NCBI GenBank assembly: GCA_043719295.1
Contig: JAYSUD010000005.1
Span: 98,077-162,076, forward strand
DNA: 64,000 nt
Direction of reading: 5' to 3'
From: a bacterium
GTDB lineage: Bacteria > Patescibacteriota > Minisyncoccia > Phycocordibacterales > UBA918
Positions 993-55,574 of this stretch are shown in pieces. Position 1 is the stretch's first letter, and each line of letters starts with the position of its first letter. The notes beneath the pieces are model-generated. The model made no database searches. It saw nothing but the letters and a program-made list of their open reading frames with translations, and was not told the origin of the DNA. The translations under genes and the position numbers were made by a program.

Positions 993-1332
993 ACATAATT
1001 ATATTAGCACGGGTTCTAAGACGGGAATCTCTTTCCCTACGGGAATGGTATGCCTTTTGGATGGATTGGTACGCTTCGCTTCCAATCCATCACAAAAGCC
1101 TTTCGAGTCCCTTTTTGGATGTGTCCGACACATCCAAAACTCTCGCTCGTAACATAAAATGGCCGTTGCTGTGGCAACGACCATTTTATTAACTGGTCAC
1201 GAGTTACTAACTATAATTGTTCGCTTCGCTCCAATTCAAGTAAGTACTCTCGACCCCGCCTCGACTGTCGCAAGCGACATGTCTATGGCTCGCAGTTAGG
1301 CACGGAAGCAAAGCAGTTTGCTTCCTAAAAAG

Positions 1333-1366
1333 AAAAACACAGTCTGACGAATGTGTTTTTCTTTTT
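1333..1366. terminator. rho-independent terminator hairpin (AAAAACACA...TGTGTTTTT) downstream of tRNA-Asp
   Basis: perfect 9-bp stem flanked by an A-run and a T-run, 10 nt from the tRNA 3' end. Confidence 0.6.
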
Positions 1367-1375
1367 ACCTAACTG

Positions 1376-1688
1376 CGCGAGAGACGGGACTCGAACCCGC
1401 AACCTCTGCCGTGCACTGAATTCATTATTTTCATAATGGCGTGGACTATATCTTTACCATGAGTCTTTCGACTGTTAGGTACCCCGGTATCTAGTCTCTA
1501 CGGCGCCCCCATACTATGTGTTTTTGTATATGGGGTTCCCTCGGTATTCGCATATCTAGTAGTGCTTATTGGGCACTATTTCAAACGACTTAGCCTTCAC
1601 CGATATCCCGGAGAGTTTCAATCCTAACTTTCGAAAGGAAAGCTGCACGTCTACAGGGCAGCGCTCTAACCAATTGAGCTACTCCCGC
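1376..1688 (-). tRNA. tRNA-Asp(GUC) interrupted by a ~239-nt group I-like intron in the anticodon loop
   Basis: 5' half (1653-1688; acceptor GCGGGAG, D-arm GCTC-AATTGGTTA-GAGC, anticodon stem CTGCC) and 3' half (1376-1413; GGCAG, variable AGGTT, T-arm GCGGG-TTCGAGT-CCCGT, acceptor CTCTCGC, discriminator G) are both canonical; splicing at 35/36 gives loop CTGTCAC and a T-arm identical to bacterial tRNA-Asp; 5' exon ends in U and intron ends in G; alternative junction 33/34 would give UGC. Confidence 0.6.
1414..1652 (-). other. putative group I intron (no internal ORF) inside tRNA-Asp
   Basis: 239-nt intervening sequence between canonical tRNA halves; boundaries U|...G| fit group I rules; size matches known tRNA group I introns. 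Confidence 0.45.
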
Positions 1689-2343
1689 AGTTCTTTATAA
1701 ACTCCTCAAAGACGACTTTTTTACGTCGTAAATGGAGTTTGTGAGGAACAGTATACATGATTTTATAAAGTTTCAAAGCGTCTTTAGTTGAGAGGATGAG
1801 TCGTGAATAATTAGCCATCTTTGGCGTATATATTCCCCCACCAATAATACCTCTTGATTGCAACACCATTCGCAAGGATAACAGATACTCGAGTGAACCC
1901 GAGGTGAATATCGATTGCAGTACTTTTGTTGGACTTTTTCGTTGCCTGTTAATAATTCCACTCCAGACATTACCGTCTCCATCAAAATAACCGCGCACAA
2001 AATCTCCAAAAAAATATTCTGGGACCTGCGGCAATTGCATACGCTTAGTTTTATTTGGGAATAAACCAATCTCACCTAAATCATAGAACCACTCCTTACT
2101 TCCAATTTGAATTCTGTATACACATCCAGTTAAGGACTTACGTCCTGAAAGTTTGTGATCAGACTGAAAACACTTTCTCATTGCAACTAATATATCTTTA
2201 TCTGCTGAATATACTGCGACAAAATGAGTGCCTCGCTTTGATTTGACTATATTCCCATCAGCATACATAAACCCTAAAATATAGGCCATGTCGGAAGACC
2301 AAATTTTAAAGAAATCTTTGTTGTATGTTTTAGATATTGGCAT
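1666..2343 (-). CDS. LAGLIDADG homing endonuclease (two-motif, single-chain)
   Basis: two LAGLIDADG-type motifs (LGFMYADGNI and RGYFDGDGNV); its 3' end overlaps tRNA-Asp exon 1 by 23 nt. Confidence 0.8.
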   Translation of the reverse strand: MPISKTYNKDFFKIWSSDMAYILGFMYADGNIVKSKRGTHFVAVYSADKDILVAMRKCFQSDHKLSGRKSLTGCVYRIQIGSKEWFYDLGEIGLFPNKTKRMQLPQVPEYFFGDFVRGYFDGDGNVWSGIINRQRKSPTKVLQSIFTSGSLEYLLSLRMVLQSRGIIGGGIYTPKMANYSRLILSTKDALKLYKIMYTVPHKLHLRRKKVVFEEFIKNCGSSSIG

Positions 2344-3600: not shown

Positions 3601-4272
3601 TTATTTACTTGCTTGTATGAGACCTAAAATTTTGTACCTCAATGTTGTACCACGAGCTACTCGTAATGCCAACACGCCGTAATAGGAATCATGATTTTCA
3701 TATATCTTTTTCGGACGGCCTTTGAGGAAAATAACTTTGTTAAATTGCTCTTTCGGGATTGATAGAAAATTAGACCAGAAAGTCATAATGACGCATTCAC
3801 GAGGTTTATGTATCTCTGATACATAAATATATGGTCGAAAATCAGACCTTTGCACCCCTAGTTGCTCAAACCAATTCCGAGCAAAAAGTATAACTGAAGG
3901 GTCAGAATTAACAAGAGCAGTACCACTCCCTCCTGCTTTAACACCCTCACCCCAGTACAACCCAATACCTAACATCAGTCTGTCACGTTTCGTCATTTTT
4001 CCAATTATAGCCTTTGCTTTATGCTCTTGTTCTAGGATATTTTCAATCTTTTTACGTCTATTTGATTCTGCTCCCATCATTCTACCTCTGTTTCCAGCTT
4101 TAATTTGTTGCAGTGTAAGTATTTCTCTTTGCGAATCAGAAAGCACTAAATCTCTACACCAAATACTCACTGAACTACTGGATACCCTAAGTCTCTTAGC
4201 TATCGCTTTAATACTCAGCCCATCAGTACGTAGATTTCTTGCAAGTAGTTTTTCTACACTTTTAGCCATCAA
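3601..4272 (-). CDS. HTH + degenerate LAGLIDADG-like (LYWGEG) homing-endonuclease-related protein
   Basis: N-terminal HTH (LSIKAIAKRLRVSSSSVSIW); C-terminal GIGLYWGEGvK...TALVNSD...ILFARNWFEQLGV parallels the I-CreI-type LAGLIDADG alpha-beta-beta-alpha core; stop codon abuts the tRNA-Met 5' end with a 1-nt gap; paralog at 46912-47569. Confidence 0.5.
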   Translation of the reverse strand: MMAKSVEKLLARNLRTDGLSIKAIAKRLRVSSSSVSIWCRDLVLSDSQREILTLQQIKAGNRGRMMGAESNRRKKIENILEQEHKAKAIIGKMTKRDRLMLGIGLYWGEGVKAGGSGTALVNSDPSVILFARNWFEQLGVQRSDFRPYIYVSEIHKPRECVIMTFWSNFLSIPKEQFNKVIFLKGRPKKIYENHDSYYGVLALRVARGTTLRYKILGLIQASK

Positions 4273-5058: not shown

Positions 5059-5757
5059 TTAGATTTCTTGATGCCGCGCTTCTTCAACGATAAACCGCGC
5101 ATTTGCATTTTCCACATCTGCAACTGTTGCAATAGGAATCCATCGATTTTGTTCAACAATCGCAATTGGATACTTCTGTGCATATCGTTCAATAACTTCA
5201 GTAAGGTAAAATTCTTCTTTAACCGGTGTCTCTGGATTGAACTCAAAGATGTGATGATCAAGAACCATCGCTCCCGTTGAAGCACAGTTACTTGGTGGGT
5301 GTTCTGGTTTTTCTATCATAAGCCCAAGTGTTCCATCTGGATTTCGAACAACAATTCCAAACTTTTCAGGATTATCAACTGAGGCAACAAGTAATGAGCG
5401 TGTGTATGAAGTTGCGCGCGCAAGATCTTCTTTCCCGTGAATATCGTCAGCAAACAGGAACAAGAAACGTCCCGTGATTAGGTCCTTACAAAGCCAAAGA
5501 GCTTTTGCAGTACCATTTTGTTCTTCTTGAACAATATACGTAACTTTTTTGCCATGAAACACAGGACCGCAGTATTCTTGAATCATGTGTCCTAAGTAGC
5601 CCGTAACAATAACAAGTTCATCAACTGAACTCGGAAGTGCCTCGACAATATGGTCGAGCAATGTTTTACCTCCCACTTGCACAAGTGGTTTTGGTAGGTT
5701 TTCTGTTAATGGCCGTAGCCGTGTTCCTTTCCCTGCAGCTAAAATTACGCATTGCAT
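5059..5757 (-). CDS. sugar-phosphate nucleotidyltransferase, tandem paralog
   Basis: ILAAGKGTRLRPLT motif; start moved to MQCVILAAGKG by alignment with the paralog. Confidence 0.7.
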   Translation of the reverse strand: MQCVILAAGKGTRLRPLTENLPKPLVQVGGKTLLDHIVEALPSSVDELVIVTGYLGHMIQEYCGPVFHGKKVTYIVQEEQNGTAKALWLCKDLITGRFLFLFADDIHGKEDLARATSYTRSLLVASVDNPEKFGIVVRNPDGTLGLMIEKPEHPPSNCASTGAMVLDHHIFEFNPETPVKEEFYLTEVIERYAQKYPIAIVEQNRWIPIATVADVENANARFIVEEARHQEI

Positions 5758-5995
5758 ATAATTACATTTATAACACACTTTTCAGATTATGCAACAATTA
5801 CCGTGAGTCAATTAGACATCTCGAATTTTAAGTGGTATTCTCTTTGTGCACTATTGAATATAGCGGGGTGAGAAAGCGAATACATGGAGCTTTCGTAAGA
5901 CTTTGACTGCTATTTTAAAAGGCTTGACCGAATTAAAATAGCGGCAAAGTGTAAAGATCCTGTAAGGATGAGGAGTGATGGGAGTATAATAATAT

Positions 5996-6107: not shown

Positions 6108-9100
6108 TTACGGTACTTTCTTTAAGGCAGCTAACTTCGCTTGTAGTTCAGCGAGTAATGTAAGTAACTGCAATATTTTTGCCTGTAACACAAAGTTTGT
6201 TGAAGCCTGTGGAATAATAGAAGAAGATCCCTGCCCAGTTACTCTAGAACAATATACTTCGTTTAATTTAAGTCTCGTCTGTGGACCGACATTTCCGTAC
6301 CCGGTTGTTTGTGGAGTACCTGAAGTGATTATTCCGTACTTCAACTGAAAACGTTCAATTGCTTTTTGTGTCAGTAAACCATAAAAACCAGTGACTTCTT
6401 TTTCTGGATAAACTGCCGAATCAGTCCCAAGCATACGTTGTAGTTGTGAGACAGATGCTCCAGACATACCATAAGAAAGCGATGTAGTAAGTAGACACGA
6501 AGTGTTTAGAGGGATTGGAGTAATACTACGCACTGGCGTTATTGGCTTTATTATAGCAACAGCAGGAATAACTAATGGAGAACTAACAGATGTTGTGGCG
6601 ACAGTTTTCTTTTTACTGCTACTTCCCCCTCCACCACTACTTCCACCCCCACTTGATGCAGCTGCGGTTGTGGTAAACGTTTGATCTGAAGACATTTGTA
6701 GATTATTCGCAGCATCTCTTGAACGCACTCTAAAGTGGTACAGGGTGCTAGCAGTCAAACCACTAAGTGTCACAGTGTGACTTGTTACATCTGCAGTATC
6801 GAGCGTTGTAGATGCACTATAAGAAGACGATAAACCATAATTAATCTGACTGTCTCCGGCTTCATTAGTTGTCCAGGTTATTGTGGCACTTGTGTTCCCT
6901 GTTGATGAGGCGATGGCAGAGAGTATTGGGGAGGTATTATCGACTGTTACCACAAGAGTACTTGAAGTTGCATAATTATTTAATGTATCTCGCACGACTG
7001 CAAGAAGTGAGACTGAACCGTCTGTAAAAAGTGAGGTGTTTGCAAGGGTTGTGTAGGGAGCACTCGTATCTTCACTTCCAATATTTGTTCCATTAATTTT
7101 AAATTGAACTCCAGCTACTCCGATATTATCAGAAGCAGTTGCAGAAATAACGCTTGCTAACCCAGAGATGGTTGCACCTCCAGATGGACTTGTAATGGAT
7201 ACTGTTGGACTTGTTATATCAGCGACTGCAGTTGTTCTCATTGTGGTATCTCCAGAGAAAGTCACATTACCTGAGCTGTCTGCTGTTCTAATGCGGAAAT
7301 GGTATAGCGTACTTGGACTTAGGCTATTTATGACAACACTATGTGAAGTTACTAAAGAGGCATCAAGTGTCGTTGTGGCTCCGTATGCAGTTGTGGGGCC
7401 ATATGAAACCTGTGAGTTAGCTGCTTCATTAGTTGTCCAGGTTATTGTGGCACTTATGTTCCCTGTTGTGGAAGCAATTGCTGTAATAAGAGGAGCGGTT
7501 ATATCAGCACTACTTAGACGCTCGTACACTCCAAGGTCATACCGAGCACTCTGCGGTCGAGTCACCCCAATATAGTCATTTGTTACAAGGGCCGTGGTAG
7601 TACCGATATCAATTGCCGGTGAAGTTGTTGCCAGCAAAAAATTGAGTGCGGAAGCAAGAATAAATTGTGGATCTACACTGATAGAGTTAGCTTCGAGCGC
7701 CGGGTAGGCCACTCTAAAATTAGCGAGGTTAGTATAAAATGTACCTGAAGTCACTCCCCAATGGAACATGTTTGTCACAGTCGGCTGTGTTGAATAATAT
7801 AAGTTATAGTCAGCAATAGTTGACGTTGCAGCTTGTCCCGTCACACGCAATCCTGATACATCATTTGCCTGGTAGATGATGTTGTTTTTGATTATTGTAT
7901 CGTATGCCTGATCTAGAACTGAAATACCTCCATGGTTACCAACAACTGATGTAGCAGAATTATAAATAACATTATTGAGTATTTGGTTTCCATATACCGA
8001 CGTCTCAACAGCATCAATGGTGTTTGATTGCACCACAATTGATGCGCCATACATATCAAAGAAAATATTATTACGTATGATGTTGAAGTCTGAACCTCGA
8101 GAAACATGAAATCCAGTTCCACCAACTCCGTTAGCACGAAATGTTAATCCACAGCTATTTTGTTCAAGAATATTATTGTCACTTAATGATCCGACATACA
8201 CACAAGAATCTCGTAAGTTATAAAATGTATTACGACGAATAGTATTGTTGTCATTCCCAACATACCCACACCCTCCGTCCCCACACAAGTTAATACCATT
8301 ACCTGCAGCTACTCCCAAACCAGTAATTGTATTATCAACAACGATATTATTGTCACTACCGTTTTCAAAGCGCAGACCACCACCAAAGTCACGTTGGTTA
8401 CGTAGGAGCTGGTTGTTGCTTATAGTACTTGAAGACGCACGATGCAAGTACACACCACTCCCAAAATTGTCAACAATATCTGCATTTTGTACAGTGATGT
8501 TTGAAGAAGTTGCGATGACGTATGCACCATCAAGACCCCCGGCACCGTCGTTGTACTTGACCGCAATATCATCAAATACCAAATATTGCTTATTTACGAT
8601 TAAGAAACCTTCATTCCAAAATGGAATATCAATTGTCTTGGTACTAGGATTACTACTATCACTGGTTCGAATATATAAGATATCACCAACGCTATCGTAG
8701 TAGTACATGCCGGCAGTTAACGAAGTGGGCGAACTTCCCGTAGCCATACGAGCATTATTTTCAAAAATATTGTTAGGATCACCAGTTACGTTAATCATTT
8801 TGTACGTATTGGAAGGACCCGCTGCCACAAACGCACCAATGGAACTTGTTGCAACTCTGACATCGTCAATATACAACGTTGAGCCAGCTGCTGCTACAGC
8901 CGTACCCGAAGTACCACCTCCCCATTCAGCACGCCCAATTGTTGTGGTACTCGTATTGTAGGTAAACACTGAACCGGTACTTGAGCTATTAAGCCACATC
9001 TGTGCGCCACCGGTTACCGCATCGCCACCTTTATAACGGTACTCAAGGAGATACCACGTATCAGGAACAATTGAACCAGCAACAGTTGTACCGAAAATGC

Positions 9101-12643: not shown

Positions 12644-14680
<2,037 letters not shown>

Positions 14681-30650: not shown

Positions 30651-30762
30651 GTACGAATTAGTGTAGCAAAATTCTGGAAGATGAGGGAATTTCTACCCTT
30701 ACAGGGTCAGTACCCCGATTGGATATTTTAGTTCGCTTCGCTCCTAAACTATCTCAATCTGG

Positions 30763-30875
30763 CTTCGAATCCCTCCGCACGTGACATTTAGTCACGTGCT
30801 CATCTTCCGCGAACAAAATATGCGCCCTTGTGGGGCGCTATTTTGAATCGCGGAAGATGAGGGATTCGAACCCTC
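30763..30875. repeat. extended inverted repeat: inverted copy of the 3'-terminal ~25 nt of tRNA-Ser(ACU) (30763-30775 + 30799-30811) facing the tRNA 3' end (30849-30875), with two nested hairpins
   Basis: reverse-complement comparison of the flanks. Confidence 0.7.
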
Positions 30876-30937
30876 GAAGGATTTAACTCCTTGGCAGTTT
30901 AGTAAACTGCTGCTTTCAGCCACTCAGCCAATCTTCC
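30851..30937 (-). tRNA. type II (Ser-like) tRNA with anticodon ACU (loop TTACTAA)
   Basis: 87 nt; acceptor GGAAGAT/ATCTTCC, 3-bp D-stem GCT/AGC, long variable arm (AAGGA-GTTAAA-TCCTT), T-arm GAGGG-TTCGAAT-CCCTC, discriminator G; anticodon stem GCAGT/ACTGC. Confidence 0.65.
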
Positions 30938-34507: not shown

Positions 34508-34909
34508 ATGAAAATAATCAATATACTTTTTAAAATTGTTTTCGGTCTTATCGTTGCATTACCAATTCCAGGTGCGCTCGGCATCTTTCCTCCTCCAACA
34601 AGAGATCTCTACAACACGCAAGAGGCGTTCGATTTTATTCTTGCTCTCATGAACGTTGGGTACATTACGTCAATCATGGCCGTTGTATGTAGTATCATTT
34701 TGTTTTTGATGCTAACAAAACGTATGGCTTTTGCATCACTTTTAATTCTCCCCATTACTGTAAACGTTGTTGCATTCCATGCGGTTATTGACGGTGGATT
34801 GTTTACAAGTGGTGCGGTACTCGGAAATATTATGCTTGCACTAAACATCTACTTCCTCTGGCAAAGTCGTGAGGTATACAAGACGCTGTTAGAGAAGCGC
34901 CCAGTGTAG
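34508..34909 (+). CDS. hypothetical membrane protein (4 TM)
   Basis: ORF with hydrophobic helices. Confidence 0.35.
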   Translation: MKIINILFKIVFGLIVALPIPGALGIFPPPTRDLYNTQEAFDFILALMNVGYITSIMAVVCSIILFLMLTKRMAFASLLILPITVNVVAFHAVIDGGLFTSGAVLGNIMLALNIYFLWQSREVYKTLLEKRPV

Positions 34910-35046
34910 GTTACATGTCGAAGCTGGATACTATGAAAATGCATCAAACCCAAGGCATTGCCTTGGGTTTGATGGTTGCGGAGGGAATTTCGGTCATTAC
35001 ATGACCAGTATCTGTTGTCGCTCTTTTTCCAAAAGAGCTGGCAACA

Positions 35047-35142
35047 GCTTCGAATCCCTCCTTTTCTCGCAAATGCAACAAAACCCAAACAAAGCTTTGG
35101 CTTTGTTTGGGTTTTGGCATTTGCGGAAAAGGAGGGATTCGA
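35047..35142. repeat. ~45-bp near-perfect hairpin whose outer arms are the tRNA-Ser(GCU) 3' end (35125-35142) and its inverted copy (35047-35064)
   Basis: reverse-complement comparison; inner arms cgcaaatgcaacaaaacccaaacaaagc / gctttgtttgggttttggcatttgcg. Confidence 0.7.
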
Positions 35143-35209
35143 ACCCTCGAGGGTTATTCACCCTACTTTCTTAGCAAGAAAGCACAATCGGCCTCTCTGA
35201 CACTTTTCC
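35124..35209 (-). tRNA. tRNA-Ser(GCU), type II
   Basis: 86 nt; acceptor GGAAAAG/CTTTTCC, anticodon stem CTTTC/GAAAG loop TTGCTAA, variable arm AGGGT-GAATA-ACCCT, T-arm GAGGG-TTCGAAT-CCCTC; D-arm irregular in hand fold. Confidence 0.6.
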
Positions 35210-35226
35210 TTATTCGACATAATACG

Positions 35227-36216
35227 TTATTTCAAGTACCTTTTCAAATGCTTTGGATTATGAGTTCCAATTTCTTTCATGTACCGAGCAACATCGTGGA
35301 TTGCATCAATACGAACATTGGTTCCACTACATGTGGCAGTACTCCCGAATCGATGCAGAATAAATAACACCTCGTTTCGAAGCGGTTTTGAAGCGGAAGA
35401 AAAACATAATTTCTTATATTGATACTCCTTACCTCCTACTTTATATTTATGGAGATACACTGAACCATCTGTATCCATTAATCCTCGTAGACATGCCGAG
35501 GAATATTCTTCATTTTCTAAAATCCATGCAGGGATATGTACCTGCTGTTTCACTTTGTTACCTATAACGAGTCCTAGGGATACAAGAAAGATGACTGCCT
35601 TTTTCCGTGCCAAAACAATACTATGTGCATGTGCATCTTTACGAACATACACACTTGGCATCACCCCAAATAATTTTTGCATCAATGATTTAACAAACAA
35701 CCCATATTCAAAATCATCAACAGAATGTAAAGTGACCGACACCTGATACTGTGTCAGTCCTCCATCGCCAAGCATGATGCCTATAAATTCAGCAAGTTTA
35801 TTATTTCTCACTGGTATACAAATATTTTTTGTAAAAAAATCTGCTATTTCAGTTTTTCCGCCATTATCAAACCATCTACGCCAACTCTCTTTGCGCACTG
35901 TTTCATTCACAGGAACTCTGCCATACTTTTTCATTACTGCGGAAGAACCTGCTAAACCAGCCCGACTAGTATGCTCATAGCGATTAATTTGACAGACTCT
36001 TGGGACAAGCATATTGGCTTCTTTTGCGAGCAAAACTAGACTCTCATATGGCATCATAGTTTTACCTAACTTCCATCCACGAATTGTACGGTCCGAACAA
36101 TTGCAAATTTTTGCCATACGACCTACTGATACTTTATCGCATGCTTTTGACATCCACAGGGCTTGTTTTTCTATCGAAGCAAACTTTGCTTTTTTATCTA
36201 CTAAAGAATCTATCAT
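35227..36216 (-). CDS. LAGLIDADG homing endonuclease (two-motif) with N-terminal HTH
   Basis: motifs EFIGIMLGDGGL and LRGLMDTDGSV; HTH near the N-terminus; directly upstream of tRNA-Ser(GCU). Confidence 0.8.
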   Translation of the reverse strand: MIDSLVDKKAKFASIEKQALWMSKACDKVSVGRMAKICNCSDRTIRGWKLGKTMMPYESLVLLAKEANMLVPRVCQINRYEHTSRAGLAGSSAVMKKYGRVPVNETVRKESWRRWFDNGGKTEIADFFTKNICIPVRNNKLAEFIGIMLGDGGLTQYQVSVTLHSVDDFEYGLFVKSLMQKLFGVMPSVYVRKDAHAHSIVLARKKAVIFLVSLGLVIGNKVKQQVHIPAWILENEEYSSACLRGLMDTDGSVYLHKYKVGGKEYQYKKLCFSSASKPLRNEVLFILHRFGSTATCSGTNVRIDAIHDVARYMKEIGTHNPKHLKRYLK

Positions 36217-46688: not shown

Positions 46689-46762
46689 CCGCCCTTAGCT
46701 CAGTTGGTTAGAGCATGGAGCTTATACCTCCAGGGTCCCACGTTCGAGTCGTGGAGGGCGGA
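46689..46762 (+). tRNA. tRNA-Ile(UAU)
   Basis: acceptor CCGCCCT/AGGGCGG, D-arm GCTC-AGTTGGTTA-GAGC, anticodon stem TGGAG/CTCCA loop CTTATAC, T-arm CCACG-TTCGAGT-CGTGG, discriminator A. Confidence 0.7.
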
Positions 46763-46911
46763 CAAAAATTGAATTCATATACAAAAATGGTCATTGGTTC
46801 GCACCACAAGAGTATTTCCGTTTTCTAATTCCTTTCAGTCATAAAAAAACTAGGTCAGTCCAAGAGGTCAGACACAGTATATCTCTTTTATATTTTGAAA
46901 AAAATCCTAGT

Positions 46912-55280: not shown

Positions 55281-55574
55281 CAATTTAAAAATCTGCACAC
55301 ATTTTTCGTGGGCGATTTTTATTTGTGGAGATGGTGAACAGGCAAACTGCTTTGCCTGTGTGAAATTGAATCAAGCGGAAGCATGTTGCCTTGCAACAGC
55401 TGAGCTCGGGGAGGAAGTTCTTAGTAATTTAGGAACGAAGTGAACTTAAGTACTTAGAAACTTGACCCTTCAATTTCCACTATCTCCACCGACACATAAA
55501 ATCACTCAGATCCATGAGTGGTTTTATGTTTTATTTGGCACGGTGACCCACGGAAGTATGTCATACTTATATAT

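Follow-up and report, generated by a model that had tools for sequence, protein, structure and literature searches.

A palindrome behind tRNA-Ser(GCU) as the possible left junction of a small non-coding element found at tRNA and tmRNA gene ends in Patescibacteria

Introduction

The 3' ends of tRNA and transfer-messenger RNA (tmRNA) genes are classic landing sites of mobile DNA, and the players known to use them are kilobase-sized and carry their own integrase. Behind the tyrT gene of E. coli, tandem units of ~180 bp (the 178-bp repeats, with rtT RNA) each hold the last ~19 nt of the tRNA gene. Here we analyse a stretch of 64,000 nucleotides (hereafter the window: positions 98,077 to 162,076 of contig JAYSUD010000005.1, assembly GCA_043719295.1) from a bacterium of the Patescibacteria, in which the 3' end of the tRNA-Ser(GCU) gene forms a palindrome with its own inverted copy. 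Tentatively, and with a confidence somewhat short of even, we read this palindrome as the left junction of a non-coding insertion element of ~145 bp; it would belong to a family that sits at tRNA and tmRNA gene ends and probably acts as folded single-stranded DNA. By contrast with the known players, this family has units of 130-175 bp and is enzyme-less: a unit restores the end of the tRNA gene, comes with a terminator and an exact inverted copy of the landing site, and can frame cargo including a defence gene.

Results

The palindrome behind tRNA-Ser(GCU)

A first-pass annotation, made from the letters of the window alone, had placed the tRNA-Ser(GCU) 3' end within a near-perfect palindrome with its own inverted copy, and the exact 18-nt repeat is indeed there. 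Its arms had been set at 35047-35064 and 35125-35142, which is 1-2 nt off: they lie at 35049-35066 and 35126-35143, with exact complementarity. We read the modules on the tRNA strand, in the order S0, hairpin (a), inverted copy (IR), hairpins (c) and (d), direct copy (DR) and next hairpin. The locus comprises:

35247-35219, minus strand: promoter-like site for tRNA-Ser(GCU), from a promoter scan
35123-35209, minus strand: tRNA-Ser(GCU), called by ARAGORN and by the Rfam tRNA model (44.9 bits); CCA not encoded
35126-35143, minus strand: S0, the outer left arm, tRNA positions 54-71, TTCGAATCCCTCCTTTTC
35079-35116, minus strand: hairpin (a), a 17-bp stem with a 4-nt CAAA loop, then TTGCATTT
35049-35066, minus strand: IR, an exact Watson-Crick inverted copy of S0, GAAAAGGAGGGATTCGAA
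35049-35143, no strand: the whole palindrome S0-(a)-IR, 95 nt, a single hairpin
35012-35048, minus strand: hairpin (c), GCTGTTGCC-AGCTCTTTT-GGA-AAAAGAGC-GACAACAG, a conserved, covarying module of the family
34987-35011, minus strand: hairpin (d), ATACTG-GTCAT-GTA-ATGAC-CGAAAT
34978-34986, minus strand: DR, a partial direct copy of the tRNA-Ser(GCU) end, TCCCTCCGC
34942-34974, minus strand: distal terminator-like hairpin, 16-bp arms at 34942-34957 and 34959-34974
34980-35058, minus strand: match to covariance model R1 (75.2 bits, E 2e-15), spanning the end of IR, (c), (d) and the start of DR

S0 holds the T-loop, the 3' strand of the T-stem and six acceptor bases of the tRNA. The inner arms (35079-35095 and 35100-35116) are complementary at 17/17 positions, as first reported; together with the 18-nt S0:IR repeat they form a palindrome with 44 pairs in all, interrupted by a single 2-nt bulge and by one mismatch opposite C72. 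Folded as DNA, the 95 nt reach -50.5 kcal/mol (z = -15.6 against shuffles), the two strands being equal in fold quality, and a 286-nt region folded as RNA gives z = -14.6. By chance, an inverted 18-mer match inside 300 nt would be expected at about 1e-9. The palindrome is not chance, and the same layout recurs at other tRNA and tmRNA genes, in the window and in relatives; lack of such recurrence had been named in the first pass as the mark of a chance palindrome.

Hairpin (a) is terminator-like in a consensus terminator scan and looks like the terminator of the tRNA-Ser(GCU) gene. It is homologous to the hairpins (a) behind other tRNAs in L001, L005, L029, L031, L034 and L036 (labels of this kind denote loci on other contigs). 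The two conserved hairpins between the inverted and direct copies were absent from the first description; in (d), the ACTG linker, the GTA triloop and the GAAAT tail are conserved in the family. A motif is present at 34978-34993, where a "degenerate direct copy" had been reported, but it is no decayed copy of this tRNA: only TCCCTCC..GC is common to it and the tRNA-Ser(GCU) end. Joined to the CGAAAT tail of (d), TCCCTCCGC makes up the right-end motif CCGAAATTCCCTCC, which is identical to that of the tRNA-Tyr units in L001 and is therefore a motif of the family. The downstream hairpin exists as well, with arms of 16 bp instead of the 12 bp first given. In the terminator scan it has 15 pairs and a 3-nt loop, with CATTTT next on the tRNA strand; over 35 nt it shows 74% identity to hairpin (a), and it probably represents the older trailer hairpin.

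Common anatomy and fold

Throughout the family, S0 is the tRNA 3' end starting at T54, and (a) is a terminator-like hairpin whose stem runs on outward into the S0:IR pairing. IR, an exact Watson-Crick inverted copy, spans tRNA positions from 54 to about 71-74. Some units have it contiguous (18 nt); in others a small hairpin divides it into two parts that overlap by 3 nt, and the split point falls at the acceptor/T-stem or at the T-stem/T-loop junction. The long hairpin (c) has the apex GAGCGAAGCGAA or the variants CCGAAGG and ACGAAGT; (d) consists of ACTG, a 5-6-bp stem, a GTA loop and GAA(A)T. The direct copy of S measures 13-22 nt in most arrays: it is perfect in L005, L029, L030, L033 and L036, partial in the window and L001, and degenerate at tRNA-Ser(GCU), distal copies tending to be the more degenerate ones across arrays. 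Most units span 130-175 bp (~145 bp at tRNA-Ser(GCU)), keep the same module order and have no coding capacity; they are stacked in tandem, and some enclose cargo genes.

The fold is the same in 11/11 units first examined. In an alignment of 19 sequences, 18 of the 20 consensus pairs show compensatory changes and 95.7% of cells are paired, a figure far above that of controls with shuffled or slid partners. Covariance model R1 has 36 matches in 541 kb, nearly all of them just downstream of tRNAs.

Other units in the window

IR-bearing units stand behind 4 of the 7 tRNA-type genes of the window; tRNA-Met1, tRNA-Met2 and tRNA-Ile have no such 3' feature. Related modules also lie on the 5' side of two tRNAs. 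Besides the unit described above, we find:

30676-30849, minus strand: unit behind tRNA-Ser(ACU), R1 92.4 bits
55282-55489, plus strand: unit behind tmRNA, IR halves 55325-55336 and 55360-55372
1020-1375, minus strand: two units behind the intron-containing tRNA-Asp, R1 89.5 bits
30938-31057, minus strand: 5'-side module at tRNA-Ser(ACU), between promoter and tRNA, with the 12-nt direct repeat GGAAGATTGGCT on both flanks
5860-5995, plus strand: (c)(d)-like module upstream of tRNA-Met2, R1 35.7 bits, with the direct repeat ATAGCGGGGT on both flanks

The same architecture had been claimed for three of these loci, which is correct for tRNA-Ser(ACU) and tmRNA and partly so for tRNA-Asp. At tRNA-Ser(ACU), the inverted halves (30799-30812 and 30764-30775) overlap by 3 nt (GAG) and are separated by the hairpin CACGTGAC-TAAAT-GTCACGTG, with a 13-nt direct copy at 30676-30688. 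The tmRNA unit has its inserted hairpin at 55337-55359 and its direct copy at 55469-55489. The arrangement at tRNA-Asp is more complex than at the Ser and tmRNA loci: the second unit has a split IR, a hairpin (c) of AGGCTTTTGTG..CCAAAAGGC, then (d). The inverted tRNA copy reported there does not hold for the part GGGGTCGAGAG, a conserved motif of a third unit type that occurs also in L005, L024 and L033; G.U-compatible changes in that stretch were dropped as evidence for RNA, since they fall in this motif. The tRNA-Asp(GUC) gene itself (1376-1690, minus strand) has a group I intron at 1422-1669 in its anticodon loop (Rfam 51.1 bits), and ARAGORN makes no call.

The direct repeats that flank the 5'-side modules, 12 nt at tRNA-Ser(ACU) and 10 nt at tRNA-Met2, are the tRNA 5' end, and no inverted copy accompanies them. 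By GC skew, 3 of the 4 window arrays are co-oriented with replication, a count that is uninformative.

Recurrence in relatives

The RecQ relatives confirm the Patescibacteria origin assumed in the first pass, the best RecQ match (80% identity) being in a Kaiserbacteria metagenome-assembled genome. Among the RecQ-linked loci, the layout is found at tRNA-Tyr in L001, at both Ser tRNAs in L005 and at tRNA-Ser(GCU) in L024; about 30 tRNAs examined in other relatives show nothing comparable. A scan of metagenomes with one internal motif gave 9 contigs, and in 8 of them (those with a tRNA found) the match lies downstream of a tRNA gene. The hosts there are Ser(UGA), Ser(ACU), Ser(GCU) and Asp tRNAs, and a further unit stands behind tRNA-Arg in L033. 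Units behind Tyr, Ser(ACU/GCU/UGA), Asp and Arg tRNAs are thus spread over L001, L005, L024 and L029-L037, which together with the four window loci bears out the recurrence first proposed. The suggested search of related Patescibacteria for tRNA-3'-end palindromes likewise finds them behind several tRNAs, each matched locally.

In most units IR fits the local tRNA at 12/12 positions of the T part and 6-7/7 of the acceptor part. The ungapped T-part score is 8-11/12 where IR is hairpin-split or the unit degenerate, and three degenerate units have 4-5/7 in the acceptor part. The hairpin modules are homologous across different host tRNAs. The element family is restricted to one Patescibacteria lineage, where it stands behind many tRNA and tmRNA genes.

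The tRNA-Ser(ACU) gene (window 30850-30937, minus strand), whose anticodon is unusual among bacteria, is conserved beside or near tRNA-Ser(GCU) in several contigs of related Patescibacteria; besides the window, L005, L016, L019, L024, L029, L035 and L036 have it. Three loci with a Patescibacteria-type RecQ, tRNA-Ser(ACU) and these arrays (L003, L005 and L012) are yet labelled Azotimanducaceae, Acidimicrobiales and Patiriisocius, and are probably mis-binned. L016, a relative without the family, has a different array behind tRNA-Ser(ACU) (13357-13560, plus strand): four short hairpins, such as GAGCGAAGCTCG and GGAGCCGAAGGCGACT, behind each of which stands CCTCCGC, identical to the final 7 nt of that tRNA. 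In L036, orphan palindromes at 8510-8560 and 5290-5330 (minus strand) join the 3' half of a T-arm to an inverted copy of itself (GTTCGAATCCCTTAGCG-TCCA-ACGCTAAGGGATTCGAAC) with no adjoining tRNA; a conserved ACCGGTTATCGGTAGA motif precedes them.

Insertion, turnover and cargo

The comparison of empty sites that had been recommended is available for tRNA-Asp: in L030 a 175-nt unit separates the tRNA from its AGTTAG-terminator trailer, and in the window the same trailer lies directly behind the tRNA. Behind identical Ser tRNAs, unit type and order vary among L005, L029 and L036. The modules are mosaic: in L005 the inserted hairpin and (d) are identical in the Ser(ACU) and Ser(GCU) units, and (c), (a) and IR differ. 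In L032 the IR matches the upstream, not the downstream, direct copy; S, hairpin (a) and IR therefore travel together.

Cargo was found at three loci. In L029, an AbiJ-like, pseudogenised open reading frame (ORF) has the tRNA on one side and (a)-IR-(c)-(d)-DR on the other; a 2.6-kb segment with an ABC exporter has unit ends at its bounds in L012; and a degenerate unit stands 3 kb behind tRNA-Tyr, beyond two genes, in L001. The cargo cassettes terminate in (a)-IR-(c)-(d)-DR. Since units stack and can enclose cargo, the tRNA end behaves as a cassette attachment point.

Two more motifs, both non-coding and conserved, frame cargo genes. A post-ORF motif, AATAA.ACTAA...CCTTGACCA / GGTTCTA.CTCGAG..AGCCCGC, lies at L029 3750-3830, L012 4480-4540 and L036 5380-5450, and a hairpin motif, ATCATCGAGCTAGC.CGAGACA, occurs just past the direct copy and immediately before the next ATG in L024, L029, L012 and L032.

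In two Logan runs the same organism gives contigs that stop within arrays and are otherwise identical. The short-read contigs L038-L041 (Logan, SRR22198340 and SRR23617205) end inside arrays, at or beside inverted copies. Array elements fragment short-read assemblies.

Searches and rejected identities

An Rfam scan of the whole window at gathering thresholds returns only tRNA, tmRNA and a group I intron; an E-value scan of 34850-35260 adds, beyond the tRNA, only generic long-hairpin (miRNA-like) noise. Against 2.9 million viral contigs, four family motifs have 0 matches; phages and plasmids, compared with the unit by BLAST, have none either, these collections holding few Patescibacteria elements. 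Enzymes were sought in the window and in the array and cargo loci with flanks up to 21 kb. Over this range no Y1 HUH transposase or RAYT was seen, nor any IntI or attI in the window and examined loci, nor a Phage_integrase match among ORFs in and around arrays and cargo cassettes. Weak IS110-domain matches (E 3e-4, two ORFs) are most likely two housekeeping RuvX proteins of common fold, on our presumed assignment of the ORFs. In the searchable literature we found no description of such elements.

Pfam gave only one kind of noteworthy match, to LAGLIDADG ORFs that lie upstream of some tRNAs, with no consistent link to arrays. For the LAGLIDADG-like ORFs at 1666-2343 and 35227-36216 (both minus strand), the ORF end coincides with, or falls within, the 5' end of tRNA-Asp and of tRNA-Ser(GCU), and in other loci such ORFs do not adjoin arrays. 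A helix-turn-helix ORF (3601-4269, minus strand), weakly related to them at ~25% identity, stops 2 nt before tRNA-Met. The window also has a tRNA-Ile with anticodon UAU (46689-46763, plus strand), where most bacteria use a lysidine-modified CAU tRNA.

Several known identities were considered and rejected. A pseudo-tRNA or tandem tRNA duplicate is contradicted by IR, which carries the Watson-Crick base, unlike the tRNA 5' strand, at U4.G69 of tRNA-Tyr and G3.U70 of tmRNA. An intrinsic terminator alone fits the inner 17-bp hairpin and T-run, but not the outer 18-bp arms, which lie past the T-run and reach into the mature tRNA. A classical miniature inverted-repeat transposable element (MITE) does not fit repeats that vary with the host tRNA and in length (10-22 nt); the narrower idea that (c)(d) is a MITE duplicating TTCGAA has no support from the 5' modules and the GAAAT variant. 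The hammerhead-like CUGA...GAAA in (d) misfits at the core positions, as judged by eye, and no described Rfam RNA family matches near its gathering score.

DNA or RNA signals

Covariation is nearly pure Watson-Crick: 97 cells have double changes against 5 with one-sided G.U changes, and A.C cells (6) are about as frequent as G.U cells (5). IR is the exact complement of the tRNA 3' strand, wobble positions included. Facing the U4.G69 wobble of tRNA-Tyr it has C, the Watson-Crick base; for G3.U70 of tmRNA it reads GGAGATG, where the 5' end reads GGGGATG. In the loops, GCGAAGC, CCGAAGG, ACGAAGT and x-GTA-x belong to the d(GNA) type of mini-hairpin; GCGAAGC and CCGAAGG are known to form extraordinarily stable DNA mini-hairpins at single-stranded DNA priming sites (PMC13037366, PMC3201870). 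Hairpin (a), placed upstream of IR, should judging by its sequence stop most transcription. Overall, we lean towards action at the level of DNA over RNA.

Discussion

A proposed folded single-stranded element

From the anatomy and the DNA-type signals we infer that the unit acts as single-stranded DNA and that IR is a target-matching arm; mobility, too, is suggested by the comparison of sequences. Each 3' unit supplies a terminator hairpin for the tRNA, an IR, two conserved hairpins with GAA and GTA triloops, and a more or less complete direct copy; the tRNA would stay intact because the element duplicates its 3' end. In the folded single strand, IR could pair in one of two ways: with the 3' end of the tRNA gene, which leaves the terminator hairpin between the partners, or with the distal direct copy, which leaves the two conserved hairpins between them. 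Such pairing would create the duplex or junction where insertion or removal of the element takes place, the cutting presumably being done by an enzyme (recombinase or nuclease) whose gene lies at another place in the genome. The logic would be akin to that of integron attC, CTX-phage attP and IS608 ends.

A bolder form of this proposal is nucleic-acid-guided insertion, which we regard as unlikely while still giving it some credit. Here the 18-21-nt Watson-Crick complement of the target and enzyme-recruiting hairpins would dictate the site of a small single-stranded DNA element and its cargo, with the arm repeatedly re-written to suit different tRNAs and tmRNA. If true, it would be a naturally programmable mobile element with no recognisable transposase nearby.

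Several results speak against the insertion element. Pfam finds no integrase, transposase, HUH protein or reverse transcriptase among ~100 neighbouring ORFs. A look-up of exact neighbour proteins showed no strain-level presence/absence polymorphism. Contigs of the same organism break within arrays, and the tandem duplicate of L035 lies at a contig end. The lineage of the window and L001 has a degenerate distal direct copy and a perfect IR, a combination not predicted for a simple IR:DR recombination site. The 5'-side modules have direct repeats and no inverted copy; not every insertion therefore requires IR. The reading does not account for the re-matching of an 18-21-nt arm to a new tRNA, and the tmRNA array is head-on to replication while the other three are not. 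Finally, in 10 of 15 arrays the RNA fold of the tRNA-sense strand is somewhat better than that of the antisense strand (78 against 45 G.U pairs), and clean hairpins have 8 G.T mismatches but 2 of the A.C type. As a test of RNA against DNA this comparison of strands is mixed and weak, and it leaves room for a role of RNA.

Alternative explanations

The strand comparison also counts for an RNA-level element, by a small margin the best-placed rival, though an unlikely one. Here IR, in read-through transcripts, would pair with the tRNA 3' half or the distal direct copy; it might sequester or mark read-through precursors (e.g. for RNase III) or form an acceptor/T minihelix, and RNase P with RNase Z could release a small RNA or punctuate co-transcribed cargo mRNAs. 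The fold suits such a role: IR and direct copy form a stem that mimics the acceptor and T stems, and the hairpin inserted into split units coincides with the 7/49 junction, the very point from which the D and anticodon arms of a tRNA extend. All hairpin modules are on the tRNA strand, with terminator-like hairpins at the ends, and the minimum free energy structure of the full read-through RNA includes the S0:IR hairpin. Against this, the strong terminator look-alike (a) precedes IR, so that transcripts would mostly end before reaching it, and the covariation described above is that of Watson-Crick pairs, with A.C as frequent as G.U. A mimic without the G3.U70 and U4.G69 wobbles would lack the Ala identity of tmRNA, the triloops are typical of DNA mini-hairpins and are not GNRA tetraloops, the window lineage has a degenerate distal direct copy, and Rfam has no matching family.

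Scars of integrases are a rather improbable source: phages or islands with an attB from T-loop to 3' end would have left tandem attL/attR, and the hairpins and IR would be leftover attP arm (accessory binding) sites. Running from T54 to the 3' end, the duplicated segment corresponds to the T-loop sublocation that is classical where tRNA and tmRNA genes are targeted (Williams 2002, as cited in PMC9897764), and tandem repeats of the ssrA end are known to flank islands (PMC3146451). Cargo between repeats, including the defence-type AbiJ gene, and the tendency of distal copies towards degeneracy fit equally. Random internal deletions, however, do not predict non-coding units of 130-175 bp in identical module order; no integrase lies in or beside any array or cargo cassette, the motif and BLAST searches of viral contigs, phages and plasmids gave no match, and modules occur at tRNA 5' ends as well. 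Moreover, tRNA-targeting attP sites are not known to hold an exact inverted copy of the core.

The least probable alternative is a non-functional by-product of replication, in which template switches, prompted by terminator hairpins and by the palindromic TTCGAA of the T-loop, would extend quasi-palindromes into the tRNA 3' end, producing direct-inverted-direct copies whose arms hairpin self-correction keeps complementary without selection. It accounts for the order of copies and for junctions at a hairpin and the self-complementary TTCGAA (two template switches), for Watson-Crick-only "covariation" with G.U equal to A.C, for the equal folding of both strands of the 95-nt palindrome and for the simple S-loop-S' palindromes without other modules in L036, but it leaves unexplained the unpaired linkers and loops (ACTG, GTA, GAGCGAAGCGAA, GAAAT) conserved across tRNAs and genomes, the homologous modules behind unrelated tRNAs and tmRNA, the restriction to a single lineage when ~30 terminator-bearing tRNAs of relatives are without the feature, and distal IRs still perfect against the tRNA beside degenerate direct copies (L001, L034).

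Significance

If the inverted copy is a target-matching arm, the insertion element would represent a new way of specifying an integration site, possibly a programmable one. It would also be a platform for cassettes in Patescibacteria, bacteria with tiny genomes that are believed to rely on taking up DNA. Even as merely selfish hairpins, the arrays break short-read assemblies, yield false positives for tRNA fragments and mark variable genome regions.

Comparison with known systems

The primer-binding site of retroviruses and long terminal repeat (LTR) elements resembles IR in being 18 nt complementary to the 3' part of a specific tRNA. This identity was rejected: neither the 3' terminus nor CCA is covered by the complement found here, for which reason it cannot position the tRNA 3'-OH as a primer, and no reverse transcriptase was found. 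The tyrT/rtT repeats of E. coli are closer in layout, with tandem units directly behind a tRNA gene that include the tRNA end; they are confined to a single locus, no inverted copy is described for them, and a permissive Rfam scan gave no rtT match here.

With tyrosine-integrase islands at tRNA and tmRNA genes, including cis-mobilisable remnants, the family has in common the target from T-loop to 3' end, its duplication as a direct repeat with regeneration of the tRNA, tandem accretion at one gene and defence-type cargo. It differs in its 130-175-bp units without integrase, the exact inverted copy of the target, the fixed set of small hairpins and the related modules at tRNA 5' ends, and no viral or plasmid counterpart was found.

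The PATEs derived from IS200/IS605, and the REP/REPIN sequences served by RAYT, are likewise short non-autonomous hairpin elements; they act as single-stranded DNA, as is proposed here, and recognise their cleavage and target sites through base pairing to an internal sequence of the element. The known guides have 4-5 nt and non-canonical pairing, as against 18-21 Watson-Crick pairs here, and no TnpA or RAYT was found. In the units hairpins are present, and the target-like sequence occurs twice, either as a duplication of the target or as an element end.

The folded sites of integrons (attC, including integrase-less arrays) and of CTX phage (attP) also offer a parallel. The differences lie in the absence of an IntI or Xer gene from what was seen here, in a tRNA gene as the attachment point, and in arms that copy the host tRNA end instead of a generic core. 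The AAC...GTT triplets of attC are not kept: IR ends in TTCGAA followed by A or G, and some direct copies start with GTT (e.g. in L005). What the systems share is an imperfect palindrome conserved in structure and free in sequence, a site thought to form by folding of one DNA strand and, as in integrons, the gathering of cassettes with an ORF and a site (here the cargo of L029, L012 and L001) and of many ORF-less ones at one attachment point.

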